Under the pieces are notes generated by a model. It worked only from the letters and a program-made list of their open reading frames with translations, was not told the DNA's origin and did no database searches. DNA of 64,000 nucleotides from an uncultured Acidobacteriota bacterium (lineage in GTDB: Bacteria; Acidobacteriota; UBA6911), in NCBI GenBank assembly GCA_963809485.1, contig CAWEJX010000008.1, positions 480,001 to 544,000 of the forward strand, given 5' to 3'. Below, piece after piece: positions 5,230-47,710 of this stretch. Made by a program: the position numbers and the translations under genes. Each line of letters opens with the position of its first letter. Position 1 is the first letter of the stretch.

Positions 5230-5463
5230 GTCAGGTACCTCCGGCAAAGCCGGAGGCTTGAAAGATTGGAACCGCTCAAAGCGGTTGGAGGAGTTACGCC
5301 GGTCTTGAACGCTGACTTACGCGGGCAAAAGCCGATGCGGCGCTTCCGACCCTCGCCGAACAAATCGGCGTTTGTCAGCGCTTTTATCAGCGTTTCTCAG
5401 CGTTTCAAAATACGGAGCTGTCAAACTCTTTGAGTCTCCCGGCAGAGCCGGGGGTTTACCAAT
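5230..5463 (-). mobile_element. IS200/IS605-type non-autonomous element (MITE/PATE), copy 1
   Basis: Left end ATTGGTAAACCCCCGGCTCTGCCGGGAGACTC hairpin; right end AACCGCTTTGAGCGGTT and GCCTCCGGCTTTGCCGGAGGTACCTGAC hairpins; no ORF; 5 other copies in window. Confidence 0.8.
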
Positions 5464-5467
5464 GCAA

Positions 5468-7516
5468 TTAGCGGTTCCTGCTGGGGCGTGACACTCCGCC
5501 GGGCCTCCCGCCGGCGGCAGGGCCGGAGTTCCCTCCGCTCCTGCCCGCGGAAGGAGCAGGCATCGATCGGGCCCCACTGCTGCGTCCGGCGCCAGAAAAT
5601 GAGCTGGACCGCTGGGGTGCGCTGTATATCGTCATGCGCCGGGACTCAGGCGCTCGCGCGCCCGCACCCGGATTGTTCCAGCCGCCGCCACCGTTTGAAC
5701 GCGGAATGACGGGGTTGTTTTGCGGCCGGACTTCAGCAGGCGCCGCCGGCGCGACCGGAGCGTTGTAGGTTCGCGGCTGCTCCTGCACCGCGCGTTCGGA
5801 GCGCCACGTGTATGATCTCCCCTGAGTGGAGCGATCCGTCGCCTGGGGGCGGGCAACAGGATCGGTGATCGTCCGCGCGCCGGCATCCGGCACCGTTGAA
5901 TAGGACCTCCGGGCGGCAGGCGCAGAGGTTTGAGGCCGCGCGGCCGGCTCGGTCGCAGTCCGCGCTTCCCTGGCTGTTGGGATCGGCCTTGTGGCCGGGC
6001 CTGTATTCCGGATGGTGCGTCCTACGCCCGGGACATCCACCACCTGGATATTGGATTGCGTTCTGCGGCCTTCATCGCCCGCTATCCCTGTATTTATGAC
6101 CTGCCGGGGCGCAGCGCCGTTTGAGCGTATCTGCGGATTGCTTATTGCCGTGAGTCTATTTCGGTCGCCGTTGATGGTTCGGGGCATATTACGGACCACC
6201 GCAGGCAAGGATGCGTTTTCATTCGGCCGGACAGCGGGACGGTCGGGCGCGGCCGGTCTGTAACTGGTTGCCGTGGGCTGAACGGCAGGCCGATCCCCGG
6301 ACCATGAACCCTGTCTCCACGGCTGATCGACATTGGGAAAAGGCGTTCTGCGGTCCCTGTTTTCGAACCTGCCATTCCTGAAGTGCTCGATCCCCGTGGT
6401 GTGGAAGGCTCCGTGAACATTTCTATTGAAAGGATCGCCGGGCCGCCGGGTGTGCAGATTGCCCAATTGACTCAGCTGGTAGCTGTAAATGCCCCTGTTG
6501 TAGCGGTAGTGGTTAATGCCGTAATAATCTCCGGGGCCCAGCGGGCACCAGGAGACCCAGCCTGGGCCGCTGTAAAAACTTACCAGGCCGGGAGACCAGA
6601 AATTAAACGAGAACCCCGGGCCCGGGAGCCAGCACCATCCGTGATGAGAATGGCGATACCACCGGCCGTAATGGTACGGCAACCATCCCCAAGGCTCATA
6701 GGAAATCCATGTCCAGCCCGATAGCGGGCGATAGCACCAGCGTCCGAGAGAATATGGAGACCAGTAGGAATCCACATAATATGGGACCCAGGCGCTGCCA
6801 TAGTAGTCAACGTCCACCCATTGTCCATACCGGTCCAGTTCAGACACTCCCATGTAAAGGCTGTCGGGCAGATATTGCCTGCTCTTATAGGCATTGCGGT
6901 CCACATTGCGCCGGTCCTGCCATTCGTCCCATTCGTCCCGCTTGTTATATTTGGAAAGTAATGCTTCCCTGCCTCTCCCGGGACTGACACGAAGCATCTC
7001 CCCGGAATCGATGGTGCGCGAAAATTCGTTGCTGGCAACCTCAAGTTCGCCTTTTCGGACAATGGCCTCGGTATCCCCGTTTTCCGCGACACTGAAACGA
7101 TATACGCCCTTGCGCCGGGCATTGAAAGCCGCCGCCGGGGTGTTGATCTCGAAATCCAGGCCGCTGGATACATTCAGGGTGGATAAACCGATGAGTATGC
7201 GCAGCTGGATCCGTTTCTCGTCGAGGCTAAGAACTTCTATATCGGTGTTTTCAGCCAGCCGATAAACCGAACCGTCGTCGAGCTCAATTTCGGCTCTTCC
7301 ATCCGGCCCGGTGTATATGCGGTCTCCCGGTTCCAGCGGCAGATTGATGCTTGCCGCCGACCAGTCCGCATCCGAGGCATGCTGAAAACTGACATGCCCG
7401 ACAAGGTAGGATAGGCGTGCAAGACGCACATAATCGTCGTTATCGGATTCTGCCTGAGAAGCAGAAACGGCCAGAAATGAAGTTGTCAGGAATGCTGTTA
7501 CGAGGACATACGACAA
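5468..7516 (-). CDS. Secreted FecR-domain / DUF6600-like protein with long disordered C-terminus
   Basis: Signal peptide, ARLSYLVGHV...GDRIYTGPDGRAEIEL FecR-type region, Trp-rich WxPYxxGRW/EPWGWLPYHYGRW region; true start may be ATG 7529 with a 1-nt indel. Confidence 0.75.
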   Translation of the reverse strand: MSYVLVTAFLTTSFLAVSASQAESDNDDYVRLARLSYLVGHVSFQHASDADWSAASINLPLEPGDRIYTGPDGRAEIELDDGSVYRLAENTDIEVLSLDEKRIQLRILIGLSTLNVSSGLDFEINTPAAAFNARRKGVYRFSVAENGDTEAIVRKGELEVASNEFSRTIDSGEMLRVSPGRGREALLSKYNKRDEWDEWQDRRNVDRNAYKSRQYLPDSLYMGVSELDRYGQWVDVDYYGSAWVPYYVDSYWSPYSLGRWCYRPLSGWTWISYEPWGWLPYHYGRWYRHSHHGWCWLPGPGFSFNFWSPGLVSFYSGPGWVSWCPLGPGDYYGINHYRYNRGIYSYQLSQLGNLHTRRPGDPFNRNVHGAFHTTGIEHFRNGRFENRDRRTPFPNVDQPWRQGSWSGDRPAVQPTATSYRPAAPDRPAVRPNENASLPAVVRNMPRTINGDRNRLTAISNPQIRSNGAAPRQVINTGIAGDEGRRTQSNIQVVDVPGVGRTIRNTGPATRPIPTAREARTATEPAARPQTSAPAARRSYSTVPDAGARTITDPVARPQATDRSTQGRSYTWRSERAVQEQPRTYNAPVAPAAPAEVRPQNNPVIPRSNGGGGWNNPGAGARAPESRRMTIYSAPQRSSSFSGAGRSSGARSMPAPSAGRSGGNSGPAAGGRPGGVSRPSRNR

Positions 7517-7759
7517 TCGGCGGGATCATGGCGGATACCCTCCCGGAGGTCATCCCTCCATCTTTACAACATATCAGATGCATCCCCGCGCGGAAAGTAT
7601 CAATAAAAATGCCTTATTTTGATTTTAATGAGACATTTCCCGCCCTCAAAGGGCGTCGTCTCAAAGTCCAGGAGTGACCCCGATTTTTTCGGCCTGCCCT
7701 GGGTATGCGATTTGGCTAGCCCCTGGAATTAATGCCGCGCGGAATTCGTGGCTCTTCCG

Positions 7760-9556
7760 CTACTCGGAGCTGCTGTTGGGCGCGAGGATCTCCTTGGCAT
7801 AGGAAGCGAGATCCATCTTGACCAGTTTCGCCACGGCATCCGTCAAATACTCGCAAGTCTCCCGGGCGGTGGCGAACGACAGCGTCCGTACCGCTATCTT
7901 GCGGCAGGATGCCACGGAAACCTCCTGCAAAACCCTGCGGATCGTCGGTATGGACAGAGGATTCATGCTGAGCTGCGTGAATCCCATGCCGAGCAGCAGA
8001 ACCGCATAGAACGGATTGGACGATATTTCCCCGCAGATCCTGGCCGGTATCTTCGATTTCCCTGCCACATGGGCTATACGGGAAAGGCAATGCAGCACCG
8101 AAGGATGGAGCGGCTGGTAGAGATACGCGACGTGGGGATTTCCGCGGTCTACGGCCAGCATATATTGGATCAGGTCATTGGTGCCTACGCAAAGGAAGTC
8201 TACCTCCCTGGCCAGCACTTCCAGCGCGAGCACCGCAGCGGGCACCTCGATCATGACCCCGATAGGCACCGGTTTCAGTTCGACTTTAGGCGTTTTAAGG
8301 AGCTTGGACCGGACCTGGCCGATCAGCGCCTTCGCCTGCCGGATCTCCTCCACCGTGGAAACCATCGGCAAGACCATTTCTATATTGCCTTCGCTGCTCG
8401 CTCGGAGGATCGCCTCCAGCTGCGTGCAGAACGCCTCCCTGAGATGCAGGCTCAGGCGTATGCCACGAAGCCCCATGCTCGGATTCACCTGGCTCGCCAG
8501 GTCTTGCGCCTCGAAGATGCTTTCCGATCCGGCGTCCAGGGTTCGAATCGCCACGGGATAGGGACTCATCTCTCTTGCAAGCGTCCGGTAGGCGGAAAGC
8601 TGCTCTTCCATGCCCGGCATTCCGCCGCGATGCCTGAAATACAGGAACTCCGAGCGGAACATCCCAATTCCTTCAGCGCCGCTCTTCTTTGCAGCTCTCA
8701 ATTCGTGCGGCAGTTCCGTATTGGCGCGCAAGGAAACTGCCTTGCCGTCCCGTGTCAGGGTCCCCGGGCCTGCCTGTGCGGGCGCTGCTTCGGCCGCGGC
8801 GCCGAAGGCCTCGATGCGCCGGCGCTGGCTCTGAATGCGTTTCTGTGAAGGATTAACGACCACCTGGCCATCGTCTCCGTTCAGCAAAAGGGTATCTCCG
8901 CTGACGATGGAGGTCAGAAAGTCCTGAATGCCCATTACGGCCGGAAGGCGCAAACCTCTGCTGATGATTGCCGTGTGAGAGTTGCGTCCGCCCGATTCCA
9001 GCACAAGGCCGCGAACCTTCTGCAGGTCCATGGAAGCGAAATTGGACGGATTGAAATCGTGCGATACGATAATCAGGTCCCCGGGCAGGGCCTCCCAACT
9101 GACCGGGCGCCCCCCCGAAAGATTGATCAGGATGCGTTCCACGACATCTTCGATGTCGCTGTGGCGCTCCCGGAAGTATTCGTCTTCCAGCGACTCATAG
9201 GCATGCACCAGACGGTCGGCAGCCTGAGTGACGGCCCACTCGGCGTTGGCGTGGCTGTCGCGGACCGTGGAAAGGATTTCGGCGTTCAGAGACTTGTCCT
9301 CCAGCATCAGGATATGAGCATCCAGAATAATGCTGTGCTCCCGCCCCACCTTCTCTTCCAGGCGGGATTTCAGAGCCGCCAGTTGTTCCTTGGAGGCCTC
9401 GATCGCACGCAGGTACCTGCGCACTTCCTCCTCGACGTCGTCGACGCGGATCCTCAGGATCACACGGTTGTGGCTGTCCAGCTTGAGCGCCTGTCCCAAA
9501 ACAATGCCGCCTGAAACACCGTTACCCTGGAAAACCCTCTCCCGTTTGCGGACCAT
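7760..9556 (-). CDS. ptsI: PTS enzyme I (PEP-protein phosphotransferase)
   Basis: GGRNSHTAII phospho-His motif, GIGMFRSEFLY, NPSMGLRGIR, GTNDLIQY, CGE. Confidence 0.95.
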   Translation of the reverse strand: MVRKRERVFQGNGVSGGIVLGQALKLDSHNRVILRIRVDDVEEEVRRYLRAIEASKEQLAALKSRLEEKVGREHSIILDAHILMLEDKSLNAEILSTVRDSHANAEWAVTQAADRLVHAYESLEDEYFRERHSDIEDVVERILINLSGGRPVSWEALPGDLIIVSHDFNPSNFASMDLQKVRGLVLESGGRNSHTAIISRGLRLPAVMGIQDFLTSIVSGDTLLLNGDDGQVVVNPSQKRIQSQRRRIEAFGAAAEAAPAQAGPGTLTRDGKAVSLRANTELPHELRAAKKSGAEGIGMFRSEFLYFRHRGGMPGMEEQLSAYRTLAREMSPYPVAIRTLDAGSESIFEAQDLASQVNPSMGLRGIRLSLHLREAFCTQLEAILRASSEGNIEMVLPMVSTVEEIRQAKALIGQVRSKLLKTPKVELKPVPIGVMIEVPAAVLALEVLAREVDFLCVGTNDLIQYMLAVDRGNPHVAYLYQPLHPSVLHCLSRIAHVAGKSKIPARICGEISSNPFYAVLLLGMGFTQLSMNPLSIPTIRRVLQEVSVASCRKIAVRTLSFATARETCEYLTDAVAKLVKMDLASYAKEILAPNSSSE

Positions 9557-9831
9557 CAGTTTTCTTCTCCAAATTTCCCTTCGAACAGCTGTTTGATCGC
9601 CTCTCCGGCTTCAGACTCGTCCCGGCCTTCTATGGAAATCACCAGCCGTGTGCCTTTCGAGGCAGCCAGCATGAGAATTCCAAGGATGCTCTTCGAATCG
9701 ATCTGCTGATTCGCGTCTTCGCGCGAGATATGAATCTCGCTGGAAAAACGGGACGCAAGCCGCACCAGTTTGGCCGCGGCGCGTGCATGCAAACCCAGCC
9801 TGTTTGATACTGTAATGGGTTGACGGATCAT
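9556..9831 (-). CDS. ptsH: HPr phosphocarrier protein
   Basis: GLHARAA (His15) and SKSILGIL (Ser46) motifs. Confidence 0.95.
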   Translation of the reverse strand: MIRQPITVSNRLGLHARAAAKLVRLASRFSSEIHISREDANQQIDSKSILGILMLAASKGTRLVISIEGRDESEAGEAIKQLFEGKFGEEN

Positions 9832-10226
9832 GCCGTAAGAAAATCACTGGCCATGGCGATGCTCGAACGCCCCTGGTCGCGCACAATACGGGCCAGTGAA
9901 GCCAAGGTTTCTCCCTCTTTCTGGCTGGCAATCTTGATAATCATAGGCAGGTTAACCCCTGTCACCACGTCCACTTTCCCGGGATCATGAAATGAGAGCG
10001 CGATGTTCGACGGCGTGCCTCCGAACATATCGGTCAATATGAGTACGCCGCTCCCATCCTCGACCTCCAGGATATGCTTCTCTATGTCGTTGTGTGCGTC
10101 ATTCACATCATCATGCCAGCCGATGGAAACGGATTTTATATGGGAAATATCCCCAACAATCATTTCCGCCGCAGCCACCAGTTCCTGGCCAAGGTGTCCG
10201 TGGGTTACCACCAAAGCGCCGATCAT
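9828..10226 (-). CDS. PTS EIIA component, mannose/fructose type
   Basis: VVTHG, LILTDMFGGTPSN, VTGVNLPM motifs. Confidence 0.92.
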   Translation of the reverse strand: MIGALVVTHGHLGQELVAAAEMIVGDISHIKSVSIGWHDDVNDAHNDIEKHILEVEDGSGVLILTDMFGGTPSNIALSFHDPGKVDVVTGVNLPMIIKIASQKEGETLASLARIVRDQGRSSIAMASDFLTA

Positions 10227-10244
10227 AAAGGTAAGTCCGTTTCT

Positions 10245-11108
10245 TCAGAGGTTCACGTCACGATGGCGGACGTGGATCTCCCGTTTATGGCTTTTCAGAT
10301 GCCTGGCTAGCTCCTCTGCAACAAAAACCGAGCGGTGCCGCCCTCCGGTACAACCGACCGCTATCGTGAGATAACTTTTGCCTTCGCGAACGTAAGAGGG
10401 CAAAAGGTATTTTAAGAGATTTCCGACCTTTTTGACAAACTCCATCGTTTCGGGAAACGATCGCAGGTACTGTATCACCTTGCGGTCCTTCCCGCTTAAA
10501 TCCTTGATCCGCGGCACAAAATGGGGATTGGGAAGGAACCGCGTGTCGAACACCAGGTCCGCCTCAAGCGGTAATCCATGCTTATAGCCGAAGCTCATCA
10601 GCTGGATATTGAGGCCGCTGAATGTCGGGCGCTTCCGAAAACGCTCCGTGATCAGAGCCTTCGCCTGGTGCACCGTGTAATCGGAAGTATCGATGATGAC
10701 GTCCGCGAGCGCGGCCACCCGGCGCAGCCTCCTGCGCTCCATCCGGATCGCCTCCAGCAGCGGCCTTTCCGCCGACAGGGGATGCGGCCGGCGCGTCTCG
10801 CTGTAACGGCGCACCAGCACATGATCCCTGGCCTCGAGGTAAATCACCAGTACGCGGGCGATGGATTTCCTGAGGTCCCCGATAATTTTCCCCAGGTCAT
10901 CCAGCCTTTCGCCGGCGCGTATGTCTATGACGAGGGCCACGTCTTTTATTTCCGCCCCCTTGTCCCTCATCCCTTCACTGAATCTATGAATCAGATTTAC
11001 CGGGAGGTTGTCGACACAGATATACCCGAGGTCTTCAAAGGCCTTTAAAACGGTTCCCTTCCCGGAACCGCTCATGCCCGTTACGATGACGAGGTGGCGC
11101 AAAGACAT
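10245..11108 (-). CDS. rapZ: RNase adapter RapZ (YvcJ/YhbJ)
   Basis: VTGMSGSGK, VDNLP, RRYSETRRPHPL, SFGYKHG, GCTGGRHRSV. Confidence 0.95.
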   Translation of the reverse strand: MSLRHLVIVTGMSGSGKGTVLKAFEDLGYICVDNLPVNLIHRFSEGMRDKGAEIKDVALVIDIRAGERLDDLGKIIGDLRKSIARVLVIYLEARDHVLVRRYSETRRPHPLSAERPLLEAIRMERRRLRRVAALADVIIDTSDYTVHQAKALITERFRKRPTFSGLNIQLMSFGYKHGLPLEADLVFDTRFLPNPHFVPRIKDLSGKDRKVIQYLRSFPETMEFVKKVGNLLKYLLPSYVREGKSYLTIAVGCTGGRHRSVFVAEELARHLKSHKREIHVRHRDVNL

Positions 11109-11112: not shown

Positions 11113-11606
11113 ATTTATGATTTACGAATTACGAATGACGAATTACGAATTTAAACACACGGTGATGATTTCCGGTAAGCTGTTTGTTGTACCGGAAGTC
11201 TATTTTCTTTACGGTGCTCGGGACTGGGGCCTTCATGGGATTCACCCGTTGCGCGCCGGTTTCAGATTGGCAACTCTTATCTAATTCCATTGGTAAACCG
11301 GCTCTGCCGGGAGACTCAAAGAGTTTGACAGCTCCGTAATTTGAAACGCTGACGTACGCTGAAAAAATATAAATTTTTTTCGGCGTGGGTCGGCGTCCGT
11401 TCAGCGTGCGTCGGCGTTCAAGACCGGCCTAACGCCTCCAACCGCTTTGAGCGGTTCAAATCTTTCAAGCCTCCGGCTTTGCCGAGGTACCTGACTGCCA
11501 TTGAAGATTGCATTCTGACTATCGACTGAATAAAAAATGATCGCAAAACATCACCGCGCTTTTTAATTCGTCATTCGTCATTCGTCATTCGTAATTCGCA
11601 ATTCGT
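11113..11606. repeat. Inverted 7-mer arrays (TTACGAA)n ... (ATTCGTC)n enclosing a short IR and MITE copy 2
   Basis: Left array 11113-11151, right array 11565-11606; inner IR CGGTGATG / CATCACCG; right array overlaps the hprK 3' end. Confidence 0.88.
11289..11495 (+). mobile_element. IS200/IS605-type MITE, copy 2 (interior type B)
   Basis: ATTGGTAAA...GGCTCTGCCGGGAGACTC left end and CCTCCGGCTTTGCCGAGGTACCTGAC right end. Confidence 0.8.
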
Positions 11607-18118: not shown

Positions 18119-18263
18119 TTTCAGCGTGCGTCAGCGTTTATCGGCGTGCGTCAGCGTTAAAATATAAGGATGGGCCTCCAGAGTCGGTCTCAAAACGACC
18201 GTCGCGAGATCCTCGCCGGCAGTTATGAGACAGTCTCATGGAGAGCCGTCCTGACTGGAACCC
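18119..18263. repeat. About 145-bp dispersed composite repeat (TCAGCGT 9/11-mer array plus GGTCTCAAAA...TGAGACAG IR), copy 1
   Basis: Aligns by eye over its length with 62221-62363. Confidence 0.8.
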
Positions 18264-23094: not shown

Positions 23095-23353
23095 CTGAAC
23101 GTTGAACGTTTGAACGTTAGAACGTTAAACGTTAAAAACAAATCACGTCTTCTGACATGAACGTTTCAATCATCAATCTTTTTTTAAGGTGCAAACCTTG
23201 CAACGTGAAAACGTTTGAACGTTTGAACGTTGAACGTTAAAAACAAATGTGTTTTTCCCAGAATTTGCCGTATCAATGGATACTGCTTTATAAACGTGCA
23301 AACGTTTAAACGTTCTAACGTGCCAACGTTCCAACGTTCTAGCGTTCAACGTC
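23095..23353. repeat. Clusters of (T)GAACGTT / AACGTT(C)(C/A) 7-8-mer arrays
   Basis: Arrays at 23095-23136, 23192-23240 and 23292-23353; the last overlaps the SPFH gene stop. Confidence 0.88.
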
Positions 23354-25446: not shown

Positions 25447-25580
25447 GGTTAAACGTTGAACGTTTGAACGTTTTAACGTTGAACGTTTGCACGTTTGAAC
25501 GCTAAAAACTATACAAGTTATGGGGATCTCTGTGATCCTCGCGTTTGCTTTTAACGTTTAACGTTTAACGTTCAACGTTT
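25447..25580. repeat. Inverted AACGTT 7-8-mer arrays
   Basis: 25447-25505 (TGAACGTT type) and 25550-25580 (AACGTTT/C type); overlaps the lipA stop. Confidence 0.88.
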
Positions 25581-26431: not shown

Positions 26432-26502
26432 TGCTTCCTCTCAAAAATATTACACTACACCCATTCAATCCCGATTTTTAGCCAATCTCTCCTCCCCCAT
26501 CT

Positions 26503-26554
26503 TTTAACGTTCAACGTTCAAACGTTAGAACGTTTAAACGTTCCAACGTTCAAC
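26503..26554. repeat. AACGTT 7-8-mer array
   Basis: tttaacgttcaacgttcaaacgttagaacgtttaaacgttccaacgttcaacg between divergent lipA and SNF2 genes. Confidence 0.85.
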
Positions 26555-30986: not shown

Positions 30987-31453
30987 AAAACGCCACGGAT
31001 TCCACGGATAAATCCTGTTTTTTATTTCTATTGGTAAACCCACGGCTCTGCCGGGGGACTCATAGAGTTTGACAGCTCCGTATTTTGAAACGCTGAGATA
31101 CGCTGACAAAAGCGCTGACAAACGCCGATTTGTTCGGCGAGGGTCGGCGAGCAAAAGCCGATGAGGCGCTTCCGATGGAGTTTTCTGCGGCGGCACTGTG
31201 GCAAACGCCCGGTTTCTCATACCCTTCATCTCCTTGCCGCACGGCGCTTGCCACAGTGCCGCCGCAGAAAACTGTCCAGCGCAGAGCGCTGGCCCCTGCG
31301 GGGATCGGAAGCGCCTCATCGGCTTTTGCCCGCGTAAGTCAGCGTTCAAGACCGGCGTAACTCCTCCAACCGCTTTGAGCGGTTCAAATCTATCAAGCCT
31401 CCGGCTTTGCCGGAGGTACCTGACATTTAATCTGTGGAATCCGTGGCGTTTTT
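30985..31453. repeat. AAAAAACGCCACGGATTCCACGGAT ... ATCTGTGGAATCCGTGGCGTTTTT inverted repeat enclosing nested elements
   Basis: Arms 30985-31009 and 31430-31453; both convergent genes stop at the arm edges. Confidence 0.9.
31030..31424 (+). mobile_element. IS200/IS605-type MITE, copy 3, carrying two further nested IR elements
   Basis: Same ends as copies 1, 2 and 5; perfect inner IRs 31151-31176/31304-31329 and 31180-31204/31248-31272. Confidence 0.85.
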
Positions 31454-32498: not shown

Positions 32499-32596
32499 AC
32501 GTGGAACGTGGAAAGTGGAACGTGAAACGCGCTACCTTCTACCTTCTACCTTCCACATGAAACGTGCCAACGTTCAACGTTCAAACGTTCAACGTC
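32499..32596. repeat. (CGTGGAA)n / (TACCTTC)n arrays followed by an AACGTT array
   Basis: Read directly; CGTGGAA array recurs at 62143-62166. Confidence 0.8.
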
Positions 32597-35375: not shown

Positions 35376-36088
35376 CCGATCAAAAAACCATCGACACCGT
35401 GGTGAAAGCTCTCAGGGCCAACAATTTCAAGCCCGTCGAATATGTGGAAAAAGCCAAGGACGCCGTTCCCCTGATCCTGGATATGATTCCGGCCGACGCC
35501 AGCATCGAGATGGCGGGCTCCGTGTCCATCTCGCAGCTCGGCCTCCTGGACATGCTCAGGCAGCGCGGAAACAAGGGCCTGGATTTTCCCAAGCCCGGAG
35601 AGTCCATGCTTGATTTAAGCAAGCCGCGCAAGGATGTCCTGCTCGTCAGCACGAACGCGGTCACCATGGACGGGAAGCTGGTCAACACCGACGGCATGGG
35701 AAACCGCGTAACCGGGATGGTCTGGGGAGTGAAAAAAGTCATCCTGCTGGTTGGGGCCAATAAGATCGTGAGAGACGTGAATGAAGCTATGGACCGCGTT
35801 CAAAACACGATTTCGCCCTACCACGCCAAGCACATCGGGCTCAACACTCCCTGCGCCTTGACGGAGGCCTGCAGCGACTGCGACTCGCCCTTCCGCATCT
35901 GCAACATCACGACCATCATCACCAAGAAGCCGCCCGCAGTCGATTTCGCCATCGTCCTCGCAGGGGAGGACCTCGGATTGGGATGGGATCCTGACTGGCC
36001 GGAAGAGCGCATCGAAAAGATCAAGGCGGCGTATCAGACAGAAATGGAAAAGTTCCGGGCGTCCATGCCCCCGCCTCCGAGAAGATAA
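35372..36088 (+). CDS. LUD (lactate utilisation) domain protein
   Basis: STNAVTMDGKLVNTDGMGNRV, GANKIV, PC...CSDCDSPFRICN; ATGA overlap with upstream gene. Confidence 0.85.
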   Translation: MTDQKTIDTVVKALRANNFKPVEYVEKAKDAVPLILDMIPADASIEMAGSVSISQLGLLDMLRQRGNKGLDFPKPGESMLDLSKPRKDVLLVSTNAVTMDGKLVNTDGMGNRVTGMVWGVKKVILLVGANKIVRDVNEAMDRVQNTISPYHAKHIGLNTPCALTEACSDCDSPFRICNITTIITKKPPAVDFAIVLAGEDLGLGWDPDWPEERIEKIKAAYQTEMEKFRASMPPPPRR

Positions 36089-36160
36089 AAAAACGCCACG
36101 GATTTGGCGAAGCAATACTCGTTTTATGAATATTTTTTGGCAGTGTAATCCGTGGCGTTA
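36087..36160. repeat. AACGCCACGGAT...AATCCGTGGCGTT hairpin between convergent genes
   Basis: Same family as 30985, 42878 and 63491. Confidence 0.85.
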
Positions 36161-36814
36161 TTATTTTCGCGAGGAGAAAGATCCCAGGTCGATGAGGCCG
36201 TTCAGCACGAACTGGACCGCGATCGCCGTGAGGACAAGTCCCATCAGTCGCATCATGATGCGTATGCCCGTTTCTCCCAGGTACCTGCGCACCTGGTTGG
36301 CTCCCGCAAGAATGTAATAGGAAGCCAGCGCCGTAATCGCGACCGCCGAAAGCACGGGGATAACCTGCCACCAGTTCCTCGATTGTCCCATCAGCACCAT
36401 AACGGTGGACATGGCGCCGGGACCGGCCAGCATCGGCACGCCCATGGGAGTCACGCCGACTTCATCTTTCTGTGCTCCCTCCAACCGCTCCTCTGTCACC
36501 TCCTGGGTTCCCGACCGGCGGGCCTGGAGCATATCGTAAGCGACGACAAACAATACGAGGCCGCCGGCAATTTTGAAGGCGGGAAGCGTGATGCCGAACA
36601 GTTTAAATATCAAGCCACCGGCAAGCGAAAAAGCGGCAAGAACCACGAAGCAGGTCCACGCGGCCTGTCGCGCCGCCCTGCGGCGTTTTTCCTCGCTGTC
36701 CTCGGCCGTCATGACGAGGAACGACGGGATCGCGGCCAGGGGGTCCACGATAAAGAATATGGAGCTCAAGGCCACAAATGAGAATTGGAGAATTTCTTTA
36801 ACCTCTGCGTTCAT
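36161..36814 (-). CDS. MarC family inner membrane protein
   Basis: IVDPL, FGITLPAFKIAGG, PMGVPMLAGPG, RLMGLVLTAIAVQF. Confidence 0.92.
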   Translation of the reverse strand: MNAEVKEILQFSFVALSSIFFIVDPLAAIPSFLVMTAEDSEEKRRRAARQAAWTCFVVLAAFSLAGGLIFKLFGITLPAFKIAGGLVLFVVAYDMLQARRSGTQEVTEERLEGAQKDEVGVTPMGVPMLAGPGAMSTVMVLMGQSRNWWQVIPVLSAVAITALASYYILAGANQVRRYLGETGIRIMMRLMGLVLTAIAVQFVLNGLIDLGSFSSRK

Positions 36815-37343: not shown

Positions 37344-37919
37344 ATGCGGAAAACAACCTTTGTCGCATTGAGCTTTATCGCAGCTTTGCTTCTGACATTT
37401 ATTATTGGCTGCACGCCTCCGGCCACCGAAACGGCCAAAACCCCCGAGGCCAAGCCTTCCAGCTATGCCGAGGACCGCGCCCTCATTGAAGACCTGCAGG
37501 CGCGCTATATGTTTGCTCTGGACTTCCATGATGTCGATAGCTACCTGGCCACCTTCACCGAAGACGGCATACTCGACATCGGCACAGGCGAGATCAAGGG
37601 GCACGAAGCAATCCGCAAAATCATCTCCGGGATGCCTGCCAGCCAGGCGCCCAAGGAAGATCCCAAGCTATATCCCGCCACCGGACGCCACAACATCACC
37701 AACATCGTCATCAAAGTCGACGGCGACAAAGCCTCGGGAGTCGCCTACTGGTTCCACTACGGGAACAATAATCCAAAACGGACGGCCCAGTTTGATTCCT
37801 ATGGCCACTATGTGGACGAGTTGGCCAAAGTGAACGGCAAATGGCTATTCACCAAGAGACGCATTTACAATGAGCAGGTTGCCGAATGGATTGCGCCCAA
37901 AGCCAATCCATCTTGGTAA
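37344..37919 (+). CDS. SnoaL/NTF2-like family lipoprotein
   Basis: Lipobox-like IIGC, EDRALIEDLQARY...D...FTEDG, GHYVDELAKVNGKWLFTKR. Confidence 0.82.
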   Translation: MRKTTFVALSFIAALLLTFIIGCTPPATETAKTPEAKPSSYAEDRALIEDLQARYMFALDFHDVDSYLATFTEDGILDIGTGEIKGHEAIRKIISGMPASQAPKEDPKLYPATGRHNITNIVIKVDGDKASGVAYWFHYGNNNPKRTAQFDSYGHYVDELAKVNGKWLFTKRRIYNEQVAEWIAPKANPSW

Positions 37920-38238
37920 CGCTGACTCACGCTGACAAGAGCGCGGACGAAGGCTGACATTCTTTCATTCAAAGAAGGACAGCTATGAGTCGCCTGAATC
38001 CTGGAAATCAGGGATCGACAAGCCCTTAAGAATGCCCGATTGCCCTCCCTTGGGCCCTAAGCTTTCGCATTGCCCCGGTCATAATCCGTGCCGCCCGCGG
38101 ATGCTATTTTTGCACCCCTCCGGATGGCTTTGGTCATTCTGTGGGAAACGCGGAAAAATGGCGTTCGTATATTGCACTTAGGAGTTCCAAGTTGGACGAA
38201 ATTGTGTATGCTTACAGAGCTTAAAAGGAGGAGGGTTT

Positions 38239-40546: not shown

Positions 40547-41070
40547 AAATACTATGCCGTCCTCAGTCGATCATGGGCCAGGGGCAGCGATCTCTATCAT
40601 CTTGTGGGGCACCTTACGGAACACGCCTGGGCGGCTCCGAACCTCGAGCTTCTGAATGCTGCTTTGGAACAAACGAGTTGGGATGGGCCCCGCCTAACAA
40701 AAGCCGTTTGGCGGAAACAGCTAAGGAATCGAGTCAGGCATCTCCTGCAAAGCCGGAGGCTTGAATGACTGGAACTGCTCAAAGCGGTTGGAGGAGTTAC
40801 GCCGGTCTTGAACGCTGACTTACGCCGACCCTCGCCGAACAAATCGGCGTTTGTCAGCGTATCTCAGCGTTTCAAAATACGGAGCTGTCAAACTCTATGA
40901 GTCCCCCGGCAGAGCCTTTTCGAGTCACGCCGCCGTAGACGGCGGTTTGCCTTAAGGCGAATCGATTCCCTTGACTGGGAGAAAGCCCGAGCTGATGTTA
41001 AACCGTTCCTGGAACGCGATCGGGACCTGGATTTAGTGTAGAACGACGTCCTTATCGGTCTCCTGAAATG
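40547..41070 (+). pseudogene. C-terminal remnant of an AbiEii-type nucleotidyltransferase toxin, interrupted by MITE copy 4
   Basis: Manual translation KYYAVLSRSWARGSDLYHL...APNLELLNAALEQTSWDGP...WRKQLR [MITE] RRIDSLDWEKARADVKPFLERDRDLDLV*; family recognised from memory, not searched. Confidence 0.6.
40733..40916 (-). mobile_element. IS200/IS605-type MITE, copy 4 (left end truncated)
   Basis: GTCAGGCATCTCCTGCAAAGCCGGAGGC...GAGTCCCCCGGCAGAGCC. Confidence 0.78.
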
Positions 41071-42072: not shown

Positions 42073-42396
42073 TCAACGAATCTGTGCAGCGCGCCGCGTC
42101 CAAGCGAGAATAGCTTCTCGAAGCGCCGCATGCAGACTCAATCCCTTTTCCTTAGCCCGTTCTTCCAACAATGCCCAAATAGCTGGAGGGAAACGAACCG
42201 ACCGTGGAACCGTTCCGCCGGTTTCAAGCACTTTCTTCGGACGCCCCCGTCCAACTTGAACCGTAATTCCTTCAGCTGAGATCCGTTTCGCGTAGGGATT
42301 TGGCCGCACATGAGCTTTTGAGAAATCAATCTCAGGCATTGCTTGAAGCGATGCCTTTGATGGCTCTCTTTGATGTTTTTTAGCTGCCTTCTTCAT
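42073..42396 (-). CDS. Antitoxin partner of BrnT (BrnA/RHH-like)
   Basis: MPEIDFSKA..PNPYA, GRGRP, C-terminal RSVRFP...ERAKEKGLSLHAALREAI; overlaps the brnT stop. Confidence 0.7.
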   Translation of the reverse strand: MKKAAKKHQREPSKASLQAMPEIDFSKAHVRPNPYAKRISAEGITVQVGRGRPKKVLETGGTVPRSVRFPPAIWALLEERAKEKGLSLHAALREAILAWTRRAAQIR

Positions 42397-42649
42397 ATTG
42401 TTTCCTTTCATGGGCTGTGGCGCGACGAGCGCTAATAATTCGGATATCATGACCGTCAATCTCTATGAAAACAACCAGGAGCACCCGTTGTTTGATGGAC
42501 TCGCCGATCAATATTGCGCGGTCGCTGTGAATATCATCTGTTACCATCAGCGCTAATGGATCCCAAAAGACTGTAACCGCTTCTTCGAAGGCGATGCAAT
42601 GTTTGCGCAAGTTAGCGATGGCCTTGTTCGGATCCCATGTAAAATGCAT
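42380..42649 (-). CDS. brnT: BrnT family toxin
   Basis: FTWDPNKAIANLRKH.IAFEEA..VF.DP, IRIISARRAT.HER..YEE. Confidence 0.92.
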   Translation of the reverse strand: MHFTWDPNKAIANLRKHCIAFEEAVTVFWDPLALMVTDDIHSDRAILIGESIKQRVLLVVFIEIDGHDIRIISARRATAHERKQYEEGS

Positions 42650-42686
42650 GAATTAAGTGTAATACACTAATGGATTATTTTTCAAG
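42650..42686 (-). promoter_or_regulatory. Sigma70-like promoter with palindromic operator for brnT-antitoxin
   Basis: Minus strand TTGAAA-N18-TACACT-6nt-ATG; palindrome AGTGTA-A-TACACT at 42656-42668 overlaps the -10. Confidence 0.55.
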
Positions 42687-42742
42687 CGTGGAAGGTAGAC
42701 TCAGTATCATCGGCTTTATTGACAATCCTAAGGGAGGTTAAA

Positions 42743-42820
42743 TGGTACGCCTGGCAGGGTTCGAACCTGCGACCTTCGGTTCCGGAGACCGACGCTCTAG
42801 TCCAGCTGAGCTACAGGCGC
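42743..42820 (-). tRNA. tRNA-Arg(CCG)
   Basis: GCGCCTG TA GCTC AGCTGGACTA GAGC G TCGGT CT-CCG-GA ACCGA AGGTC GCAGG TTCGAAC CCTGC CAGGCGT A CCA folds as a cloverleaf. Confidence 0.97.
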
Positions 42821-42877
42821 ACTTTCAGACTGCTTATAATTACACGGCTACTTGCCTTCTTGCAAGCCGCCTGAAAT

Positions 42878-42937
42878 AAAAAACGCCACGGACATCACGG
42901 ATTAAAAAATGTATAATCCGTTCAATCCGTGGCGTTT
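42878..42937. repeat. AAAAAACGCCACGGA...AATCCGTGGCGTTTT hairpin
   Basis: Same family as 30985, 36087 and 63491; 9-nt internal duplication on each arm. Confidence 0.85.
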
Positions 42938-42958
42938 TGCTTATGGGGAGGAGTATTT

Positions 42959-43552
42959 ATGGAAAACAGCAGCCGAAGGAAATTCGTTAAAGACATTACG
43001 GCAATGGCCGCTGTCGGCGCATTGTCCTGCCTGGAAACAGCCCGGCCGGCCGAAAAAGGAAACACTGAAGCGATGGTCGCGCCGTGCGGGCTTTATTGCG
43101 GAGCCTGCCCCATGTACCTTGCGACGCGGGACAACGACCAGCAGAGAATCGATGCCATGCTGAAAATGTTCAACGAGAGGGATCCGAAGCTGACCATGGC
43201 CGACGTGAAATGCGACGGCTGCATCGCCGGGGGCCGCGTCGCCTGGTATTGCCGGCAGTGCGGCATGCGTGAGTGCGCCGAAAGCAAACCGAATGTCACC
43301 CGCTGCCCCGATTGTTCCGAATTTCCCTGTTCCAAAGTCACCAATTTCAACAACGACGGCATGCTGCACCATGCAGAGGTGCTGGAAAATTGCCGCCGCC
43401 TGCGGCAGGTTGGAATCAAGGAGTGGGCGAAACTCGAGGCGGAAAGATGGAGCTGCCCTAAGTGCCACGCGAGCATCGCCTGGTACGACGCTTCCTGCCC
43501 AAAGTGCAGCGCGCCGCGCTCCGAGCGCCTTTTCGCCCTAAAAAAGGCCTAG
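42959..43552 (+). CDS. Cys-rich DUF3795-like protein with twin-arginine leader
   Basis: SRRKFVK; APCGLYCGACP, CDGC, CRQCGMREC, CPDCSEFPC, C-terminal CPKC..CPKC. Confidence 0.8.
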   Translation: MENSSRRKFVKDITAMAAVGALSCLETARPAEKGNTEAMVAPCGLYCGACPMYLATRDNDQQRIDAMLKMFNERDPKLTMADVKCDGCIAGGRVAWYCRQCGMRECAESKPNVTRCPDCSEFPCSKVTNFNNDGMLHHAEVLENCRRLRQVGIKEWAKLEAERWSCPKCHASIAWYDASCPKCSAPRSERLFALKKA

Positions 43553-43659
43553 CCAGGGGGCTTCGCCCCCTGATATCCCCCCGCGCGCGACACCCGATGG
43601 AATTCGAAGCCATCAAAACGCTCTCTGGGTATTGGAAGCCAATGGTCAGAGTAAATTTT

Positions 43660-43693
43660 TAACTGGGAACTCTGAACTGGAAACTGGGAACTG
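43660..43693. repeat. (AACTGGG/A) 7-mer array
   Basis: aactgggaactctgaactggaaactgggaactg. Confidence 0.75.
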
Positions 43694-43749
43694 ATTTTCC
43701 CAATAGAAAGCCGCGGATTCCGGAAAATACAAAACATCCTGCTAATTAC

Positions 43750-43984
43750 ATTGGAAAAACCCCCGGCTCTGCCGGGGGACTCAGAGAGTTTGACAGCTCC
43801 GTATTTTGAAACGCTGACGTACGCTGACATGACGCCGACGTACGCTGAAAAAATATATAAATTTTTTTCGGCGTGGGTTGGCGTCCGTTCAGCGTGCGTC
43901 GGCGATCAAGACCGGCGTAACTAGTCCAACCGCTTTGAGCGGTTCAAATCTTTCAAGCCTCCGGCTTTGCCGGAGGCACCTGAT
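43750..43984 (+). mobile_element. IS200/IS605-type MITE, copy 5 (interior type B), inside an AGCCGCGGAT/ATCCGCGGCT IR
   Basis: Both ends present; wrapper IR at 43709-43718 and 44008-44017. Confidence 0.82.
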
Positions 43985-44215
43985 ATCGGCAAATTTCGGT
44001 TTTTGGCATCCGCGGCTCCCTTTCATTCTCTCCTAAGATCCCTCTAATCAGACTCCGATAGACAAAAATCCCTGTTTGGCTTAGGATGCTTGCACGGCAT
44101 AATAAATTTTTTGTGCCCTACCCCCCTTGAAATACAAAAGCAAAGATGCGCGAAGACTGCAATGGCACTGTCGTCGATTTGAGCCGAACACGCACAATAT
44201 GGAGGCAATTGTTCT

Positions 44216-47200
44216 ATGAACCGGATTCGTTTCATCGCCTGCGCCGCAATTTTACTATTGGGGCTCATCGCTTTTTCCCTGCGCCTTCAGGCCGTCGACG
44301 GCAGCTGGACACTGCTGGCCTGGAATAATCTCGGCATGCACTGCATGGACTCGGATTATTCCATCTTTTCCATTCTTCCTCCCTATAACGTCGTCAATGC
44401 CCAATTGATCGATGCAAACGGCAAGCTCCTTCGAAATCCCGCAGGGGTCACCGTGACCTATGAAGCGGTCCTGGATCCCGACGGTTCGATCAATTCAACA
44501 TCGGCAGGCAAGACCAACTTCTGGAACTACGTCGCCAGCTTTTTCGGTATTTCGCTGCCGGTCGACGCCGGCCTTGCCGGATTCAACATGCCCGGCTTGC
44601 AGAACGTTCCGCAAGCCATGGCCTATGATCCGGCCATTGGCGGATTCACGGCCGACGGCGTTCCCGTAACCCCCTTTGACAACGCCGGCGTAAAGAACTT
44701 TTATCCCCTGTTCCATCTGGTTGCCCGCAACACCTCCGGAAGCATACTGGCGACAACGGATGTCGTGCTTCCAGTTTCCGATGAAATGGACTGCCGCTCC
44801 TGTCACGCCTCCGACTCCTCTGCCGCTGCCCGTCCGTCTGCCGGCTGGATCCATAATCCGGATGCGGAACGGGATTACCGGCTGAACATCCTGCTCAAGC
44901 ATGACGAGCATATTGGCAATTCTGCTTTATACCGGAACGCCCTCGATACCGCCGGTTATCGCCAGGATGGATTGTATGCAACGGTCACACAGGGCGGCAC
45001 GCCAATCCTTTGCGCCCGTTGTCACCGCTCCAACGCGCTGCCCGGAACAGGACTCAGCGGCATCGCGCCTCTGACGCAGGTGGTTCATTCGCTGCACGCC
45101 ACCGTCACGGATCCGACCAACGGTCAGACGTTGAACAGCAGTTCCAACCGGACGGCATGCTATCGATGCCACCCCGGCTCCGAGACTCGCTGCCTGCGCG
45201 GTGCCATGGGGATGTCGGTGGACTCCGGCGGGTCCCTGGCCATCCAGTGCCAGAATTGTCATGGATTGATGAGCGCGGTCGGTTCTGCAAGCCGTGAAGG
45301 TTGGCTCCATGAGCCGGCATGTCAGAGCTGCCATACCGGAACTGCAACCCAGAACAGCGGCCAGATCCGCTATACATCGGCATTGGACTCCAACGGGATC
45401 CCGCGCATAGCCGCCAATAACACTTTTGCCACGAATGCGAATACTCCTGCCGCCGGGCTTTCGTTATATCGTTTCTCCAAGGGTCATGGGAGTCTGCAGT
45501 GCTCGGCTTGCCACAACTCCACCCATGCGGAGTTGCCGTCAACCGTCCGCAATGACAACATCCAGAGCCTGCAGATCCAGGGGCACACGGGCACAATTTC
45601 CGATTGCATCAACTGTCACAACACCCAGCCGCGCACCGTGACCGGTGGGCCGCACGGGATGCATCCCGTCGACCAGCAGTGGGCCAATGGTCATGAAGAT
45701 GTGGTCGAAAATAGCGGATCGTCCCAATGCCGGACCTGCCACGGCACGGACTACCGCGGCACAGTGCTGTCACGATCGCTTGGGGACCGCGATATTTCAA
45801 CCGAATTCGGGGTAAAGAAGTTCTGGCGCGGCTTCCAGACCGGCTGCTATACCTGTCACAATGGCCCGGACAGCGACGATGCCAACCGGAACCGTGCGCC
45901 GGTTGCCGCCAATACATCCGCGTCCACCACATCCGGAGTTCCCGTCAATATCTCGCTCAATGTCTCGGATGCGGACAACAACGCCCTGCAGTTGCGCATC
46001 GTGTCCCAGCCCGCGCATGGAACGGTGGCGCTCAACAACAGGACAGCCACCTTCATACCCAATGCCGGCTATGCCGGGACCGACAGCTTCACCTACGCCG
46101 CCTGGGACGGATCAACCCAGTCCAATCTTGGAACCGTCGCCCTGAACGTCGCCAGCGAATTTTTCGTCCCTCTGTATCTTGGCGATGCTAATTCCTTCAC
46201 GGGTTTTGCCGTATCGAATTTCGGGGCTGTGGGAGCCGAGGTGCAGTTCACCGCCTATGCTGCCAACGGCACAAAGCTTCCCTTCCCCGGCAACCCGTCT
46301 TCTTACATGATTGCGCCTCGGGCGCAACTTGCGCTCCTCGGCCATGAAATCTTTGGCATTCCCTTCACGACTCCCCAAAACGGATGGGTCAGGATTTCCG
46401 GCAGCGTTCCGGACGTCGGCGGCTTGTATCAAATCGGCGATTATGCGGGCCGCCTGCTCGACGGCGCGGCTGCGGATACCCAAACGGCGCGCGTTTTGAG
46501 GTTCACCAGGGTGTATGAAGGAGCGGGCGCATTTCGAGGCCAAAGCGCAAGCACATTTCTGAGCATTGCCAACCCGAATTCTGCTTCGGTCACCATAAAT
46601 CTTAACCTGCGCGGGCCTCAGTCGAATCAGGCGCTCGCCCCGCAACAGACGGTGTCCCTCCCCGGTAACGGAGTTCTCTCGGGCACTGTGGCCGAGATCT
46701 TCAATCCGACGCTGCCGGTAACGAACGGTTGGGTGGATGTCCAGGTAACTGCCGGGGACGGGGTGGCAGGTTTTGAAATGGTCCGATTCCCCGATGTGGG
46801 AACCGTGGTCGGTCTTGCCGGAAACAGCGGCGACGCGCCCAATCAGTCCTATTCGGCCCAATTGGCGGTCACCCCCGACTATTTCACCCATCTGAAACTC
46901 ATCAACACGAGTAACCTTGCCCGTACGGTCAACCTGCACGCCGTTGCCGAGAACGGCGCGGATCTCGTGGCGCCTGTGGCCGTCCATCTCGAATCGGGAC
47001 AGTCTCTCGAACAAAGCGCAGATCAGCTCTTAGGCCTGGTTTCACCCGCTGTGGGTTCTCTGAAGGTTGATGCGGATGGTCCTGGAATCATCGGCGATGT
47101 TCTGTTCGGTGACCCGACGACGCTCACCTTTGCCGCTTCCTGCGCATTGGAGAGCCGGAAATTCAGAGCGGCCGTATTCAGCCACGTAGCCAACGATTCT

Positions 47201-47482
47201 TATTATTTCACCGGACTGGCCGTGCTCAATCCGACCAGCAGGACTGCTTCAATTACCCTGGATGTCTATACCGTATCGGGGCAGAAGACCGGATCGGTTG
47301 TGATGCAGCTCGGGCCGGGACAGCGCTTTTCGAAGCTGCTTACTGAGCTCCTGCCCGTTTCTGCAGGACAGATGAAAGGCTTCATTTCGCTCACGTCGGA
47401 TCAGCCTATACTTGCGCAGGAGCTCTTCGGCGACAAGAGCCTGAGTTTCCTTTCGGCTGTTCCGCCCAAAATTGTCCGATGA
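44216..47482 (+). CDS. Secreted 9-heme c-type cytochrome fused to an Ig-like domain and four C-terminal beta-rich repeats
   Basis: Signal peptide; WNNLGMHC; CRSCH, CARCH, CYRCH, CQNCH, CQSCH, CSACH, CINCH, CRTCH, CYTCH; APVA...PAHGTV...GTDSFTY Ig-like domain; repeats FTGFAVSN, STFLSIAN, FTHLKLIN, FTGLAVLN. Confidence 0.88.
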   Translation: MNRIRFIACAAILLLGLIAFSLRLQAVDGSWTLLAWNNLGMHCMDSDYSIFSILPPYNVVNAQLIDANGKLLRNPAGVTVTYEAVLDPDGSINSTSAGKTNFWNYVASFFGISLPVDAGLAGFNMPGLQNVPQAMAYDPAIGGFTADGVPVTPFDNAGVKNFYPLFHLVARNTSGSILATTDVVLPVSDEMDCRSCHASDSSAAARPSAGWIHNPDAERDYRLNILLKHDEHIGNSALYRNALDTAGYRQDGLYATVTQGGTPILCARCHRSNALPGTGLSGIAPLTQVVHSLHATVTDPTNGQTLNSSSNRTACYRCHPGSETRCLRGAMGMSVDSGGSLAIQCQNCHGLMSAVGSASREGWLHEPACQSCHTGTATQNSGQIRYTSALDSNGIPRIAANNTFATNANTPAAGLSLYRFSKGHGSLQCSACHNSTHAELPSTVRNDNIQSLQIQGHTGTISDCINCHNTQPRTVTGGPHGMHPVDQQWANGHEDVVENSGSSQCRTCHGTDYRGTVLSRSLGDRDISTEFGVKKFWRGFQTGCYTCHNGPDSDDANRNRAPVAANTSASTTSGVPVNISLNVSDADNNALQLRIVSQPAHGTVALNNRTATFIPNAGYAGTDSFTYAAWDGSTQSNLGTVALNVASEFFVPLYLGDANSFTGFAVSNFGAVGAEVQFTAYAANGTKLPFPGNPSSYMIAPRAQLALLGHEIFGIPFTTPQNGWVRISGSVPDVGGLYQIGDYAGRLLDGAAADTQTARVLRFTRVYEGAGAFRGQSASTFLSIANPNSASVTINLNLRGPQSNQALAPQQTVSLPGNGVLSGTVAEIFNPTLPVTNGWVDVQVTAGDGVAGFEMVRFPDVGTVVGLAGNSGDAPNQSYSAQLAVTPDYFTHLKLINTSNLARTVNLHAVAENGADLVAPVAVHLESGQSLEQSADQLLGLVSPAVGSLKVDADGPGIIGDVLFGDPTTLTFAASCALESRKFRAAVFSHVANDSYYFTGLAVLNPTSRTASITLDVYTVSGQKTGSVVMQLGPGQRFSKLLTELLPVSAGQMKGFISLTSDQPILAQELFGDKSLSFLSAVPPKIVR

Positions 47483-47554
47483 TACAGGCAGCTACGGCTG
47501 CAAACCGGCCAGGAAACGCCGGAAATTCCGCGAACGATAGTATTGCTACATCAC

Positions 47555-47710
47555 ATTGGTAAATCCCCGGCTCTGCCGGGAGACCCAAAGAGTTTGACAG
47601 TTCCGTATTTTGAAACGCTGAGAAACGCTGATAAAAGCGCTGACAAACGCCGATTTGTTCGGCGAGGGTCGGCGAGCAAAAGCCGATGAGGCGCTTCCGA
47701 TGGCGTTTTC
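47555..47710 (+). mobile_element. IS200/IS605-type MITE, copy 6 (right half missing)
   Basis: Left end and interior match copy 3 up to GCGCTTCCGATGG. Confidence 0.75.

Follow-up and report, generated by a model that had tools for sequence, protein, structure and literature searches.

Small transposase-less derivatives of the IS200/IS605 insertion sequences (IS), termed palindrome-associated transposable elements (PATEs), are known in Haloquadratum walsbyi (PMC3119063) and Geobacillus stearothermophilus (PMC10055086). In IS608 of Helicobacter pylori, the 4 nucleotides (nt) 5' of each hairpin foot act as guides (PMC3201880, PMC5934647), and the pairs of guide and cleavage site are AAAG with TTAC on the left (GL and CL) and GAAT with TCAA on the right (GR and CR), with A+16:T-3 and A+17:T-4 pairing (PMC5934647). 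Here we analyze a family of short repeats in a 64,000-nt stretch of contig CAWEJX010000008.1 (positions 480,001 to 544,000) from an uncultured Acidobacteriota bacterium, which we call the window. The repeats, six copies numbered c1 to c6, are very probably PATEs—internally deleted derivatives, lacking a transposase gene, of an IS200-group (tnpA-only) member of the IS200/IS605 family. To our knowledge, mobile elements of Acidobacteriota have been little described. Judged by title and abstract opening, no paper among the search results describes this family in the phylum, to which it would add a dense set of PATEs. An earlier note on this DNA had presented the repeats as an unusual MITE (miniature transposable element with inverted repeats). 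MITE is a loose name for transposase-less IS200/IS605 derivatives, and such derivatives are not unusual, having already been described as PATEs (PMC3119063, PMC10055086).

Copies in the Window and in a Metagenome-Assembled Genome

How abundant is the element? All six copies that the earlier note had placed in the window are there on inspection and alignment, at a density of about one per 10 kb, and four of them (c1, c2, c3, and c5) are complete. The window copies are pairwise 84–97% identical across 65–128 nt in a repeat search that included inverted pairs, and blastn-short with all six as queries recovered the same six plus three short matches to free-standing CRGCGT arrays, which we take up below. 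A scan of genome contigs with a 22-nt left-end pattern returned at least 17 loci, all from contigs of one uncultured Acidobacteriota metagenome-assembled genome (MAG; CAYYTC01), which holds at least 19 further copies; the sample is skewed to left ends, because the search pattern lies in the left end. The element is present in all 17 listed loci at 68–99% identity to the window copies, the copy in L015 matching c3 at 96.1% over 334 nt and at 98.2% over the inner 171 nt. The only other similarity to the window among these loci is in L007 (about 70–73%, within a gene). Among the 23 anchored copies—six in the window and 17 in the listed MAG loci—12 are complete, at 188–398 nt save one of 646 nt, which is longer because another element is nested inside it.

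Ends Shared with tnpA-Bearing Elements

Where do the ends of the element come from? With c3 as query, blastn over 72,556 plasmids yielded three matches: the left end aligned with a Rhodanobacter plasmid (E 4e-7, 87.8% over 49 nt) and pDCAR1 of Solidesulfovibrio carbinolicus (87.2% over 47 nt), and the right end matched a plasmid of Pseudodesulfovibrio profundus (85.7%, E 5e-6). An open reading frame (ORF) lies about 60 nt past the left end in pDCAR1, where it is truncated by an adjoining IS1380, and 60 of its residues match the Pfam family Y1_Tnp (E 3e-12). Relatives gathered onward from this locus, and then with a TnpA protein query, comprise 11 full-length elements from P. profundus, Leptolyngbya boryana (two copies), Iodobacter, M. 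extorquens (annotated as ISMex34 family), Achromobacter, Rhizobium, Azotobacter, Acidovorax, Fukatsuia, and R. rhizogenes. All 11 are about 0.65–0.7 kb long and carry tnpA alone, with no tnpB; TnpA from three of them (P. profundus, Leptolyngbya, and Iodobacter) matches PF01797 at E 1e-36 to 7e-41. The first and the last ~60 nt of the Acidobacteriota element are homologous to the left and right ends of these relatives, in alignments of four of the 23 Acidobacteriota copies with six plasmid loci (left) or five (right).

The assignment to nonautonomous IS200/IS605 elements, moved by HUH enzymes of the Y1 type, that the earlier note had proposed is thus borne out by ends that are homologous to those of PF01797 tnpA elements and that follow the IS608 guide rule. 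Its further expectation, a Y1 transposase gene between such ends, is realized in other phyla: the plasmid relatives with tnpA have hosts in the Cyanobacteriota, Pseudomonadota, and Thermodesulfobacteriota, and no such gene was found in the window and the 17 listed MAG loci (~132 kb together). Gene-less relatives also occur on plasmids of Rhodanobacter denitrificans and P. profundus (Table 1), the latter on the same plasmid as its full-length parent.

The end sequences quoted in the earlier note are correct by alignment, and they contain two hairpins on the same strand, CCCCCGGC-TCT-GCCGGGGG on the left and CCTCCGGC-TTT-GCCGGAGG on the right. In the window and listed MAG copies, the left hairpin starts 12 nt from the end and the right one finishes 8 nt from the end; the element ends have no terminal inverted repeats. 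The loop is TCT in nearly all left hairpins and TTT in every right hairpin, and because the loops differ, these are two distinct hairpins in direct orientation. Both are kept by compensatory changes: 5 of 14 pairs change on both sides in the right-end alignment (A2), where 98.4% of cells are paired as opposed to 30–48% with the partner slid, and 1 of 8 pairs does so in the left-hairpin alignment (A1).

Guide and Cleavage Sites

Do the ends follow the guide rule of IS608? We applied the rule in an 8-nt stem register, pairing guide base 1 with site base 2, 2 with 1, and 4 with 4. The right guide CAAG predicts a TGAC ending 8 nt 3' of the stem, which is found exactly in 11 of 13 right ends and as TGAT in the other two. 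The left guide TAAA predicts a TAAT ending 12 nt 5' of the stem; 12 of 21 copies match it exactly, seven differ by one base (TGAT three times, TATT twice, TAAA, and TTAT), and two differ by two or more. Among the relatives, 11 of 12 loci have the predicted CR ending 7–9 nt 3' of the stem, and 11 of 14 have the predicted CL ending 12–15 nt 5' of the stem, the exceptions on the left being Iodobacter, where it is found only at 8 nt, and Fukatsuia and R. rhizogenes, which do not fit in the 8-nt stem register. By chance, a given tetranucleotide would end at one of four positions in ~1.6% of loci, and the test spans eight different GL/CL and four different GR/CR combinations.

Three further comparisons among the relatives bear on the left site. 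Guide and site change together in P. profundus, where the full-length IS has AAAC with TTAG and the gene-less copy AAAT with TTAA. In the two Leptolyngbya copies, the shared sequence runs through TAAT and no further. The IS of Achromobacter pDCA-1 interrupts a transporter gene that blastn finds intact in Delftia pLME1; compared with this empty site, it is inserted exactly 3' of the predicted CTAG and ends in TTAC, with no duplication or loss. Both ends of the element obey the IS608 guide/cleavage rule, and the code holds across a widespread tnpA-only IS200 clade, so that 4 nt within the left end of any member suffice to read its target. The known workings of the IS200/IS605 family are left unchanged by this.

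Where, then, does the element begin? The left flanks TTGC, TTCC, TTCT, TTAC, and TCAC reported in the earlier note are as claimed, and the flank alignment of 21 left ends answers its call for a target consensus: a consensus is present, and the flanks of the complete copies share no direct repeat that could be a target duplication. This consensus, TAAT-TAC, extends 7 nt beyond ATTGG, with 1.45, 0.72, 1.28, 1.72, 1.41, 0.68, and 1.14 bits along it and 0.27 bits at position -8. On the right, homology stops at TGAC as the note had said; the 13 termini (...CCTGAC) hold 2.0 bits at each of T, G, and A, falling to 0.26 bits at +1. Two of its claims need revision, in that the left boundary is probably not at ATTGG and the target probably not TTAC-like. 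The guide rule and homology with the relatives put cleavage after TAAT, 3 nt further out, so that the flanks TTGC, TTAC, and the others would each consist of a single target nucleotide followed by the element's first 3 nt. From the rule and this homology, rather than from an empty site of this element, we infer a left end T-N-C ATTGG and a target TAAT. A 7-nt target, TAATTAC, was our first reading and was replaced, following the guide rule, by TAAT plus the first three element nucleotides; within one mismatch, 85 such heptamers occur in the window, three of them occupied.

As proposed for this element, a TnpA dimer supplied in trans would bind both hairpins on the single-stranded top strand. 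Cleavage 3' of TAAT on the left and 3' of TGAC on the right would free a single-stranded circle, which would then enter single-stranded DNA 3' of a new TAAT ("peel and paste"). Insertions 1 nt after the TAA or TGA of a gene are tolerated, since a stop codon lies within TAAT and the gene stays intact. In 4 of 21 copies (c1, L007, L009, and L016), the stop triplet of the target (TAAT or TGAT) is indeed the stop codon of a long co-oriented ORF, and in 9 of 21 such an ORF ends no more than 35 nt upstream of the element. The simplest reading of this placement is the survival of harmless insertions.

Several observations weigh against an IS200-group origin by the route described above. With TnpA of three relatives as queries, tblastn over the ~132 kb of window and listed loci gave nothing better than E 0.3, and a Pfam scan that covered 51 window ORFs, out of 158 with a length of 100 amino acids (aa) or more, found no Y1_Tnp, the one transposase match being an IS66 fragment. 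Many copies are dead: the right end is absent in 8 of the 23 anchored copies (L001, L002, L007, L008, L009, L016, L017, and c6), and the left end is damaged in c4 and L013. The guide of c5 fails to predict its own flank, and the right end of R. rhizogenes is one base off the rule. The element's second nucleotide is unusually variable (A in 13 copies, C in 5, G in 3; 21 copies), as is the 4-nt linker before the right TGAC, which keeps alive the alternative of cleavage after TAATTNC rather than TAAT; by eye, the variable left TNC shows no association with subfamily, right flank, or right linker. Mobility is read from dispersed copies with sharp ends, because the empty site is that of a relative. 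A lagging-strand bias has been reported for the IS200/IS605 family (PMC5027513); the six window copies, too few to show such a bias or its absence, are four plus and two minus in a uniformly negative GC skew.

The Central Hairpin and the Free-Standing Arrays

What occupies the place of the transposase gene? Folded as a single strand, the element forms four hairpins, namely a left one, a central one, a small one whose loop is TTTGA, and a right one, and the fold is far stabler than that of shuffled sequence (z -4.8 and -10.2). The central hairpin stands where the relatives have a leader hairpin followed by tnpA, and each of its arms holds four CRGCGT heptamers at ~10-nt spacing. Alignment confirms the two versions distinguished in the earlier note, A in c1, c3, c4, and c6 and B in c2 and c5; among the 20 of the 23 anchored copies that could be typed, 15 are of type A and 5 of type B (c2, c5, L004, L008, and L009). 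The two versions have the base of a single central stem (TTGAAACGCTGA...TCAGCGTTCAAG) in common and diverge toward the apex; they are therefore better seen as two subfamilies than as the "exchangeable cargo" of that note, for whose swapping there is no evidence. Its "MITE-REP hybrid" (REP, repetitive extragenic palindrome) finds no support for the same reason, the central hairpin being one hairpin in two subfamilies. It also occurs in deletion forms, of which the extreme is a 39-nt terminal-only copy in L016 that consists of the left tail, a single hairpin, and the right tail. The long form, as in c3, has an inner palindrome that is confined to the copies.

The related repeats said to stand free elsewhere in the window are real and number six (Table 1). 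Each is an array of four CRGCGT heptamers at ~10-nt spacing with a T-run before it, the same design as an arm of the central hairpin, and three belong to a second repeat family that reaches 78 nt further. Two small repeat families were seen beside them, each of which contains or directly follows a free array. Four arrays lie 57–155 nt upstream of plus-strand genes (starting at 18238, 57003, 59760, and 62414), the last of which (62414-63091) encodes a LuxR-type response regulator. No free array was found in the 68 kb of listed MAG loci.

Could the host keep these sequences for its own use? A regulatory module, in which the hairpin would serve as a terminator or mRNA stabilizer, or its paired arrays would be bound by a regulator shared with the free arrays upstream of genes, would be compatible with a PATE origin, and we consider it unlikely. 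The stability of the fold relative to shuffled sequence, the nine copies at most 35 nt behind a co-oriented long ORF, and the arrays of the same design ahead of four genes, one of them for a LuxR-type regulator, all speak for it. However, a promoter and terminator scan of 56800-62500 predicted no site at the free arrays, these are not seen in the listed MAG loci, and other short-period arrays abound in the window, so that such hairpins may arise by slippage. A more specific version, to which we assign a slightly smaller chance still, is that the PATE is a vehicle that scatters operator clusters behind and between genes, if a regulator binds the head-to-head CRGCGT arrays at its center, whose heptamers are spaced by one helical turn; if true, the element could titrate a regulon or change its wiring. 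In the opposite direction, the free arrays may derive from PATE halves that were domesticated.

Other Explanations for the Repeats

REP-associated tyrosine transposases (RAYTs, or TnpA-REP) are themselves Y1 HUH enzymes. A domesticated RAYT, and not an IS200 transposase, might have spread the repeats as REP sequences or as REPINs, their paired form. They do resemble such sequences in being short, G+C-rich palindromes, dense in intergenic DNA and often located right after stop codons. Yet the terminal hairpins are direct, not inverted, and consistently distinct in their loops, TCT on the left and TTT on the right; the ends are homologous to those that flank tnpA in the 11 full-length IS (left end, tnpA, right end); and both follow the IS608 rule. 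The scanned window ORFs, moreover, include no Y1 gene. We regard a RAYT origin as highly improbable.

About equally improbable is a PATE whose conserved right part is the scaffold of an encoded omega-RNA that would guide a TnpB or IscB nuclease. Geobacillus PATEs often encode omega-RNAs (PMC10055086), and the right 90 nt of the element are conserved and structured. Against this, the full-length relatives are without exception tnpA-only and lack tnpB, no TnpB-like domain was found among the 51 scanned ORFs, and Rfam yields only generic hairpin matches far below gathering scores: at the gathering score, the whole window gave a transfer RNA only, and at an E-value threshold c3 and c5 gave only microRNA-type look-alikes far below the cut-off.

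Movement by a DDE transposase, as a classical MITE with terminal inverted repeats, can be dismissed as refuted: reverse-complementing the right end does leave GGTA and then a CC(C/T)CCGGC hairpin at both ends, but this similarity is the palindrome itself, the loop bases reveal direct orientation, no complete copy is flanked by a target duplication, comparison with the empty site of the Achromobacter relative reveals none either, and a true MITE of that type, nested in L015, looks quite different. This nested element has 14-nt perfect terminal inverted repeats and a 7-bp direct repeat, and no copy of it was found in the window.

Other Observations on the Copies and the Window

Read as PATEs, the repeats also help annotation, explaining contig breaks and ORFs that run into repeat sequence. 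The MAG contigs of L010 and L012 terminate inside copies (that of L012 runs off the contig end), as expected if the repeat breaks short-read assemblies. In the window, a 166-aa ORF extends into the truncated c6 for ~55 codons and has its stop in the left flank of that copy; it is either a gene that lost its 3' end beside c6 or a spurious ORF. In L006, a solo hairpin has a left tail (TCCAATGAGAGAT) closer to the P. profundus lineage than to the main family, and the MAG may thus hold a second lineage of the element. Copy c3 lies inside the loop of a terminator-like hairpin (CGCCACGGATT...AATCCGTGGCG), one of four such loci in the window.

The gene content of the window is that of an ordinary Gram-negative chromosome (coaBC, gmk, rpoN, hpf, hprK, rapZ, lptC/A-like, prfB, lnt, and others). 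Many of its intergenic regions contain tandem arrays of 7–8-nt units (GGATCAGA, ACGAATT, AACGTTNN, and ACGTGGA), in many cases arranged in inverted pairs. The arrays might fold into long stems that span an intergenic region or even genes (e.g., 23194-23242 with 26502-26550), and we are not aware of a described counterpart. A 279-nt unit is repeated in tandem about ten times (84% matches) within a run of large ORFs, of which the two scanned, 50587-51399 and 52663-54918, have no Pfam match; the region may be a repetitive surface-protein gene, possibly split into several frames.

Table 1. Positions of element copies, their parts, and other features; positions are in the window unless a locus is named
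Feature	Position	Strand	Description
c1	5230..5466	-	Complete, A-type central hairpin, 237 nt; starts TGC-ATTGG, ends TGAC; equals the c3 long form with a deletion between two TCGG repeats
c1 target TAAT	5467-5470	-	TAA is the stop codon of ORF 5468-7516(-)
c2	11286..11495	+	Complete, B-type central hairpin, 210 nt; target TAAT 11282-11285; 1-nt deletion in right hairpin; flanked by inverted ACGAAT-heptamer arrays 11119-11174 and 11542-11597
c3	31027..31424	+	Complete long A form, 398 nt, extra inner palindrome
c3 target position	31023-31026	+	TATT
c3 left hairpin	31039-31057	+	Loop TCT
c3 central hairpin	~31083-31350	+	Inner palindrome 31179-31273
c3 small hairpin	31368-31384	+	
c3 right hairpin	31398-31416	+	Loop TTT; terminal TGAC 31421-31424
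c4	40733..40916	-	Short A form; right end intact; left end gone outward from mid left hairpin
c5	43747..43984	+	Complete, B-type, 238 nt; target TAAT 43743-43746; additional A in left guide; right terminus mutated to TGAT
c6	47552..47710	+	Left half only, from long A form; target position ACAT
ORF running into c6	47546-48046	-	166 aa
Free CRGCGT arrays	18122-18157, 49608-49645, 56909-56946, 59682-59717, 62224-62259	+	
Free CRGCGT array	37913-37964	-	
Small repeat family	18160-18237 / 62261-62338		78 nt, 81% identity; with free CRGCGT array
Small repeat family	49580-49665 / 56881-56966		86 nt, 90% identity; with free CRGCGT array
Terminator-like hairpin	30985-31022/31438-31467, 36088-36176, 42878-42953, 63491-63557		AAAAACGCCACGGATT ... 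AATCCGTGGCGTTTTT; c3 within the loop of one
IS66 remnant	50056-50454		132-aa ORF; its match to the IS66 transposase profile is limited to the final 70 positions
7–8-nt-unit arrays	2997-3056/3158-3217, 5207-5228, 11119-11174/11542-11597, 23096-23352, 25452-25580, 26506-26553, 32499-32595, 62145-62166		
279-nt tandem repeat	51149-53923	-	
Terminal-only copy	L016 ~3710-3750	-	39 nt
Solo hairpin	L006 ~1060-1110	+	
Nested MITE	L015 2302-2544		243 nt; direct repeat TAACTAG at 2295-2301 and 2545-2551
Gene-less relative, R. denitrificans plasmid	L018 3994-4162		169 nt
Gene-less relative, P. profundus plasmid	L020 3789-4054		266 nt
Achromobacter pDCA-1 IS	L026 280-943		

Comparison with Known Systems

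How does the element compare with systems already described? Like PATEs, it lacks a transposase gene, terminal inverted repeats, and a target duplication (PMC3119063, PMC10055086), and its near-terminal palindromes are akin to those of IS200/IS605 elements. PATEs also share with it the deletion of the core, down to terminal-only copies such as the 39-nt one in L016 (PMC3119063), and nested insertions of other small elements. It differs from these PATEs in belonging to the Acidobacteriota, in deriving from the tnpA-only IS200 group and not from the IS1341/TnpB type, and in its long central hairpin of decamer-spaced CRGCGT repeats.

Its relatives within the IS200 group are the elements of Leptolyngbya boryana pLBX, Iodobacter fluviatilis pl1, and P. 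profundus paDPRO, together with the ISMex34-family elements of M. extorquens p2META1 and Achromobacter pDCA-1, the name ISMex34 being the annotation of the sequence record. With these it shares a homologous left end, GGTAAA-CCCCCGGC-TCT-GCCGGGGG-ACTCA..AGTTTGAC; a right end made up of the small TTTGA-loop hairpin, the guide, the CC(T/C)CCGGC-TTT hairpin, and an 8-nt tail; and the same guide and cleavage geometry, although the guide and cleavage tetranucleotides themselves vary between lineages. The relatives carry a Y1 tnpA of 143–144 aa with a leader hairpin, both of which the window element lacks.

IS608 of H. pylori offers a likeness of plan: both elements have subterminal hairpins, a target tetranucleotide 5' of the left end and outside the element, a right cleavage tetranucleotide that forms the last 4 nt of the element, and both sites read by the 4 nt 5' of the hairpins. 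The distances differ: in IS608 the left hairpin has TTAC at 19 nt and the right one TCAA at 10 nt, as against TAAT at 12 nt and a TGAC that ends 8 nt from the right hairpin in the window element; IS608 also carries tnpB, and the ends of the two have no sequence similarity. Finally, REP sequences, bacterial interspersed mosaic elements (BIMEs), and REPINs with their RAYTs are likewise abundant extragenic G+C-rich hairpins tied to a Y1 HUH enzyme. REPINs, however, are inverted pairs of one palindrome, with a single-copy RAYT gene between, whereas the window element has two distinct hairpins in direct orientation.

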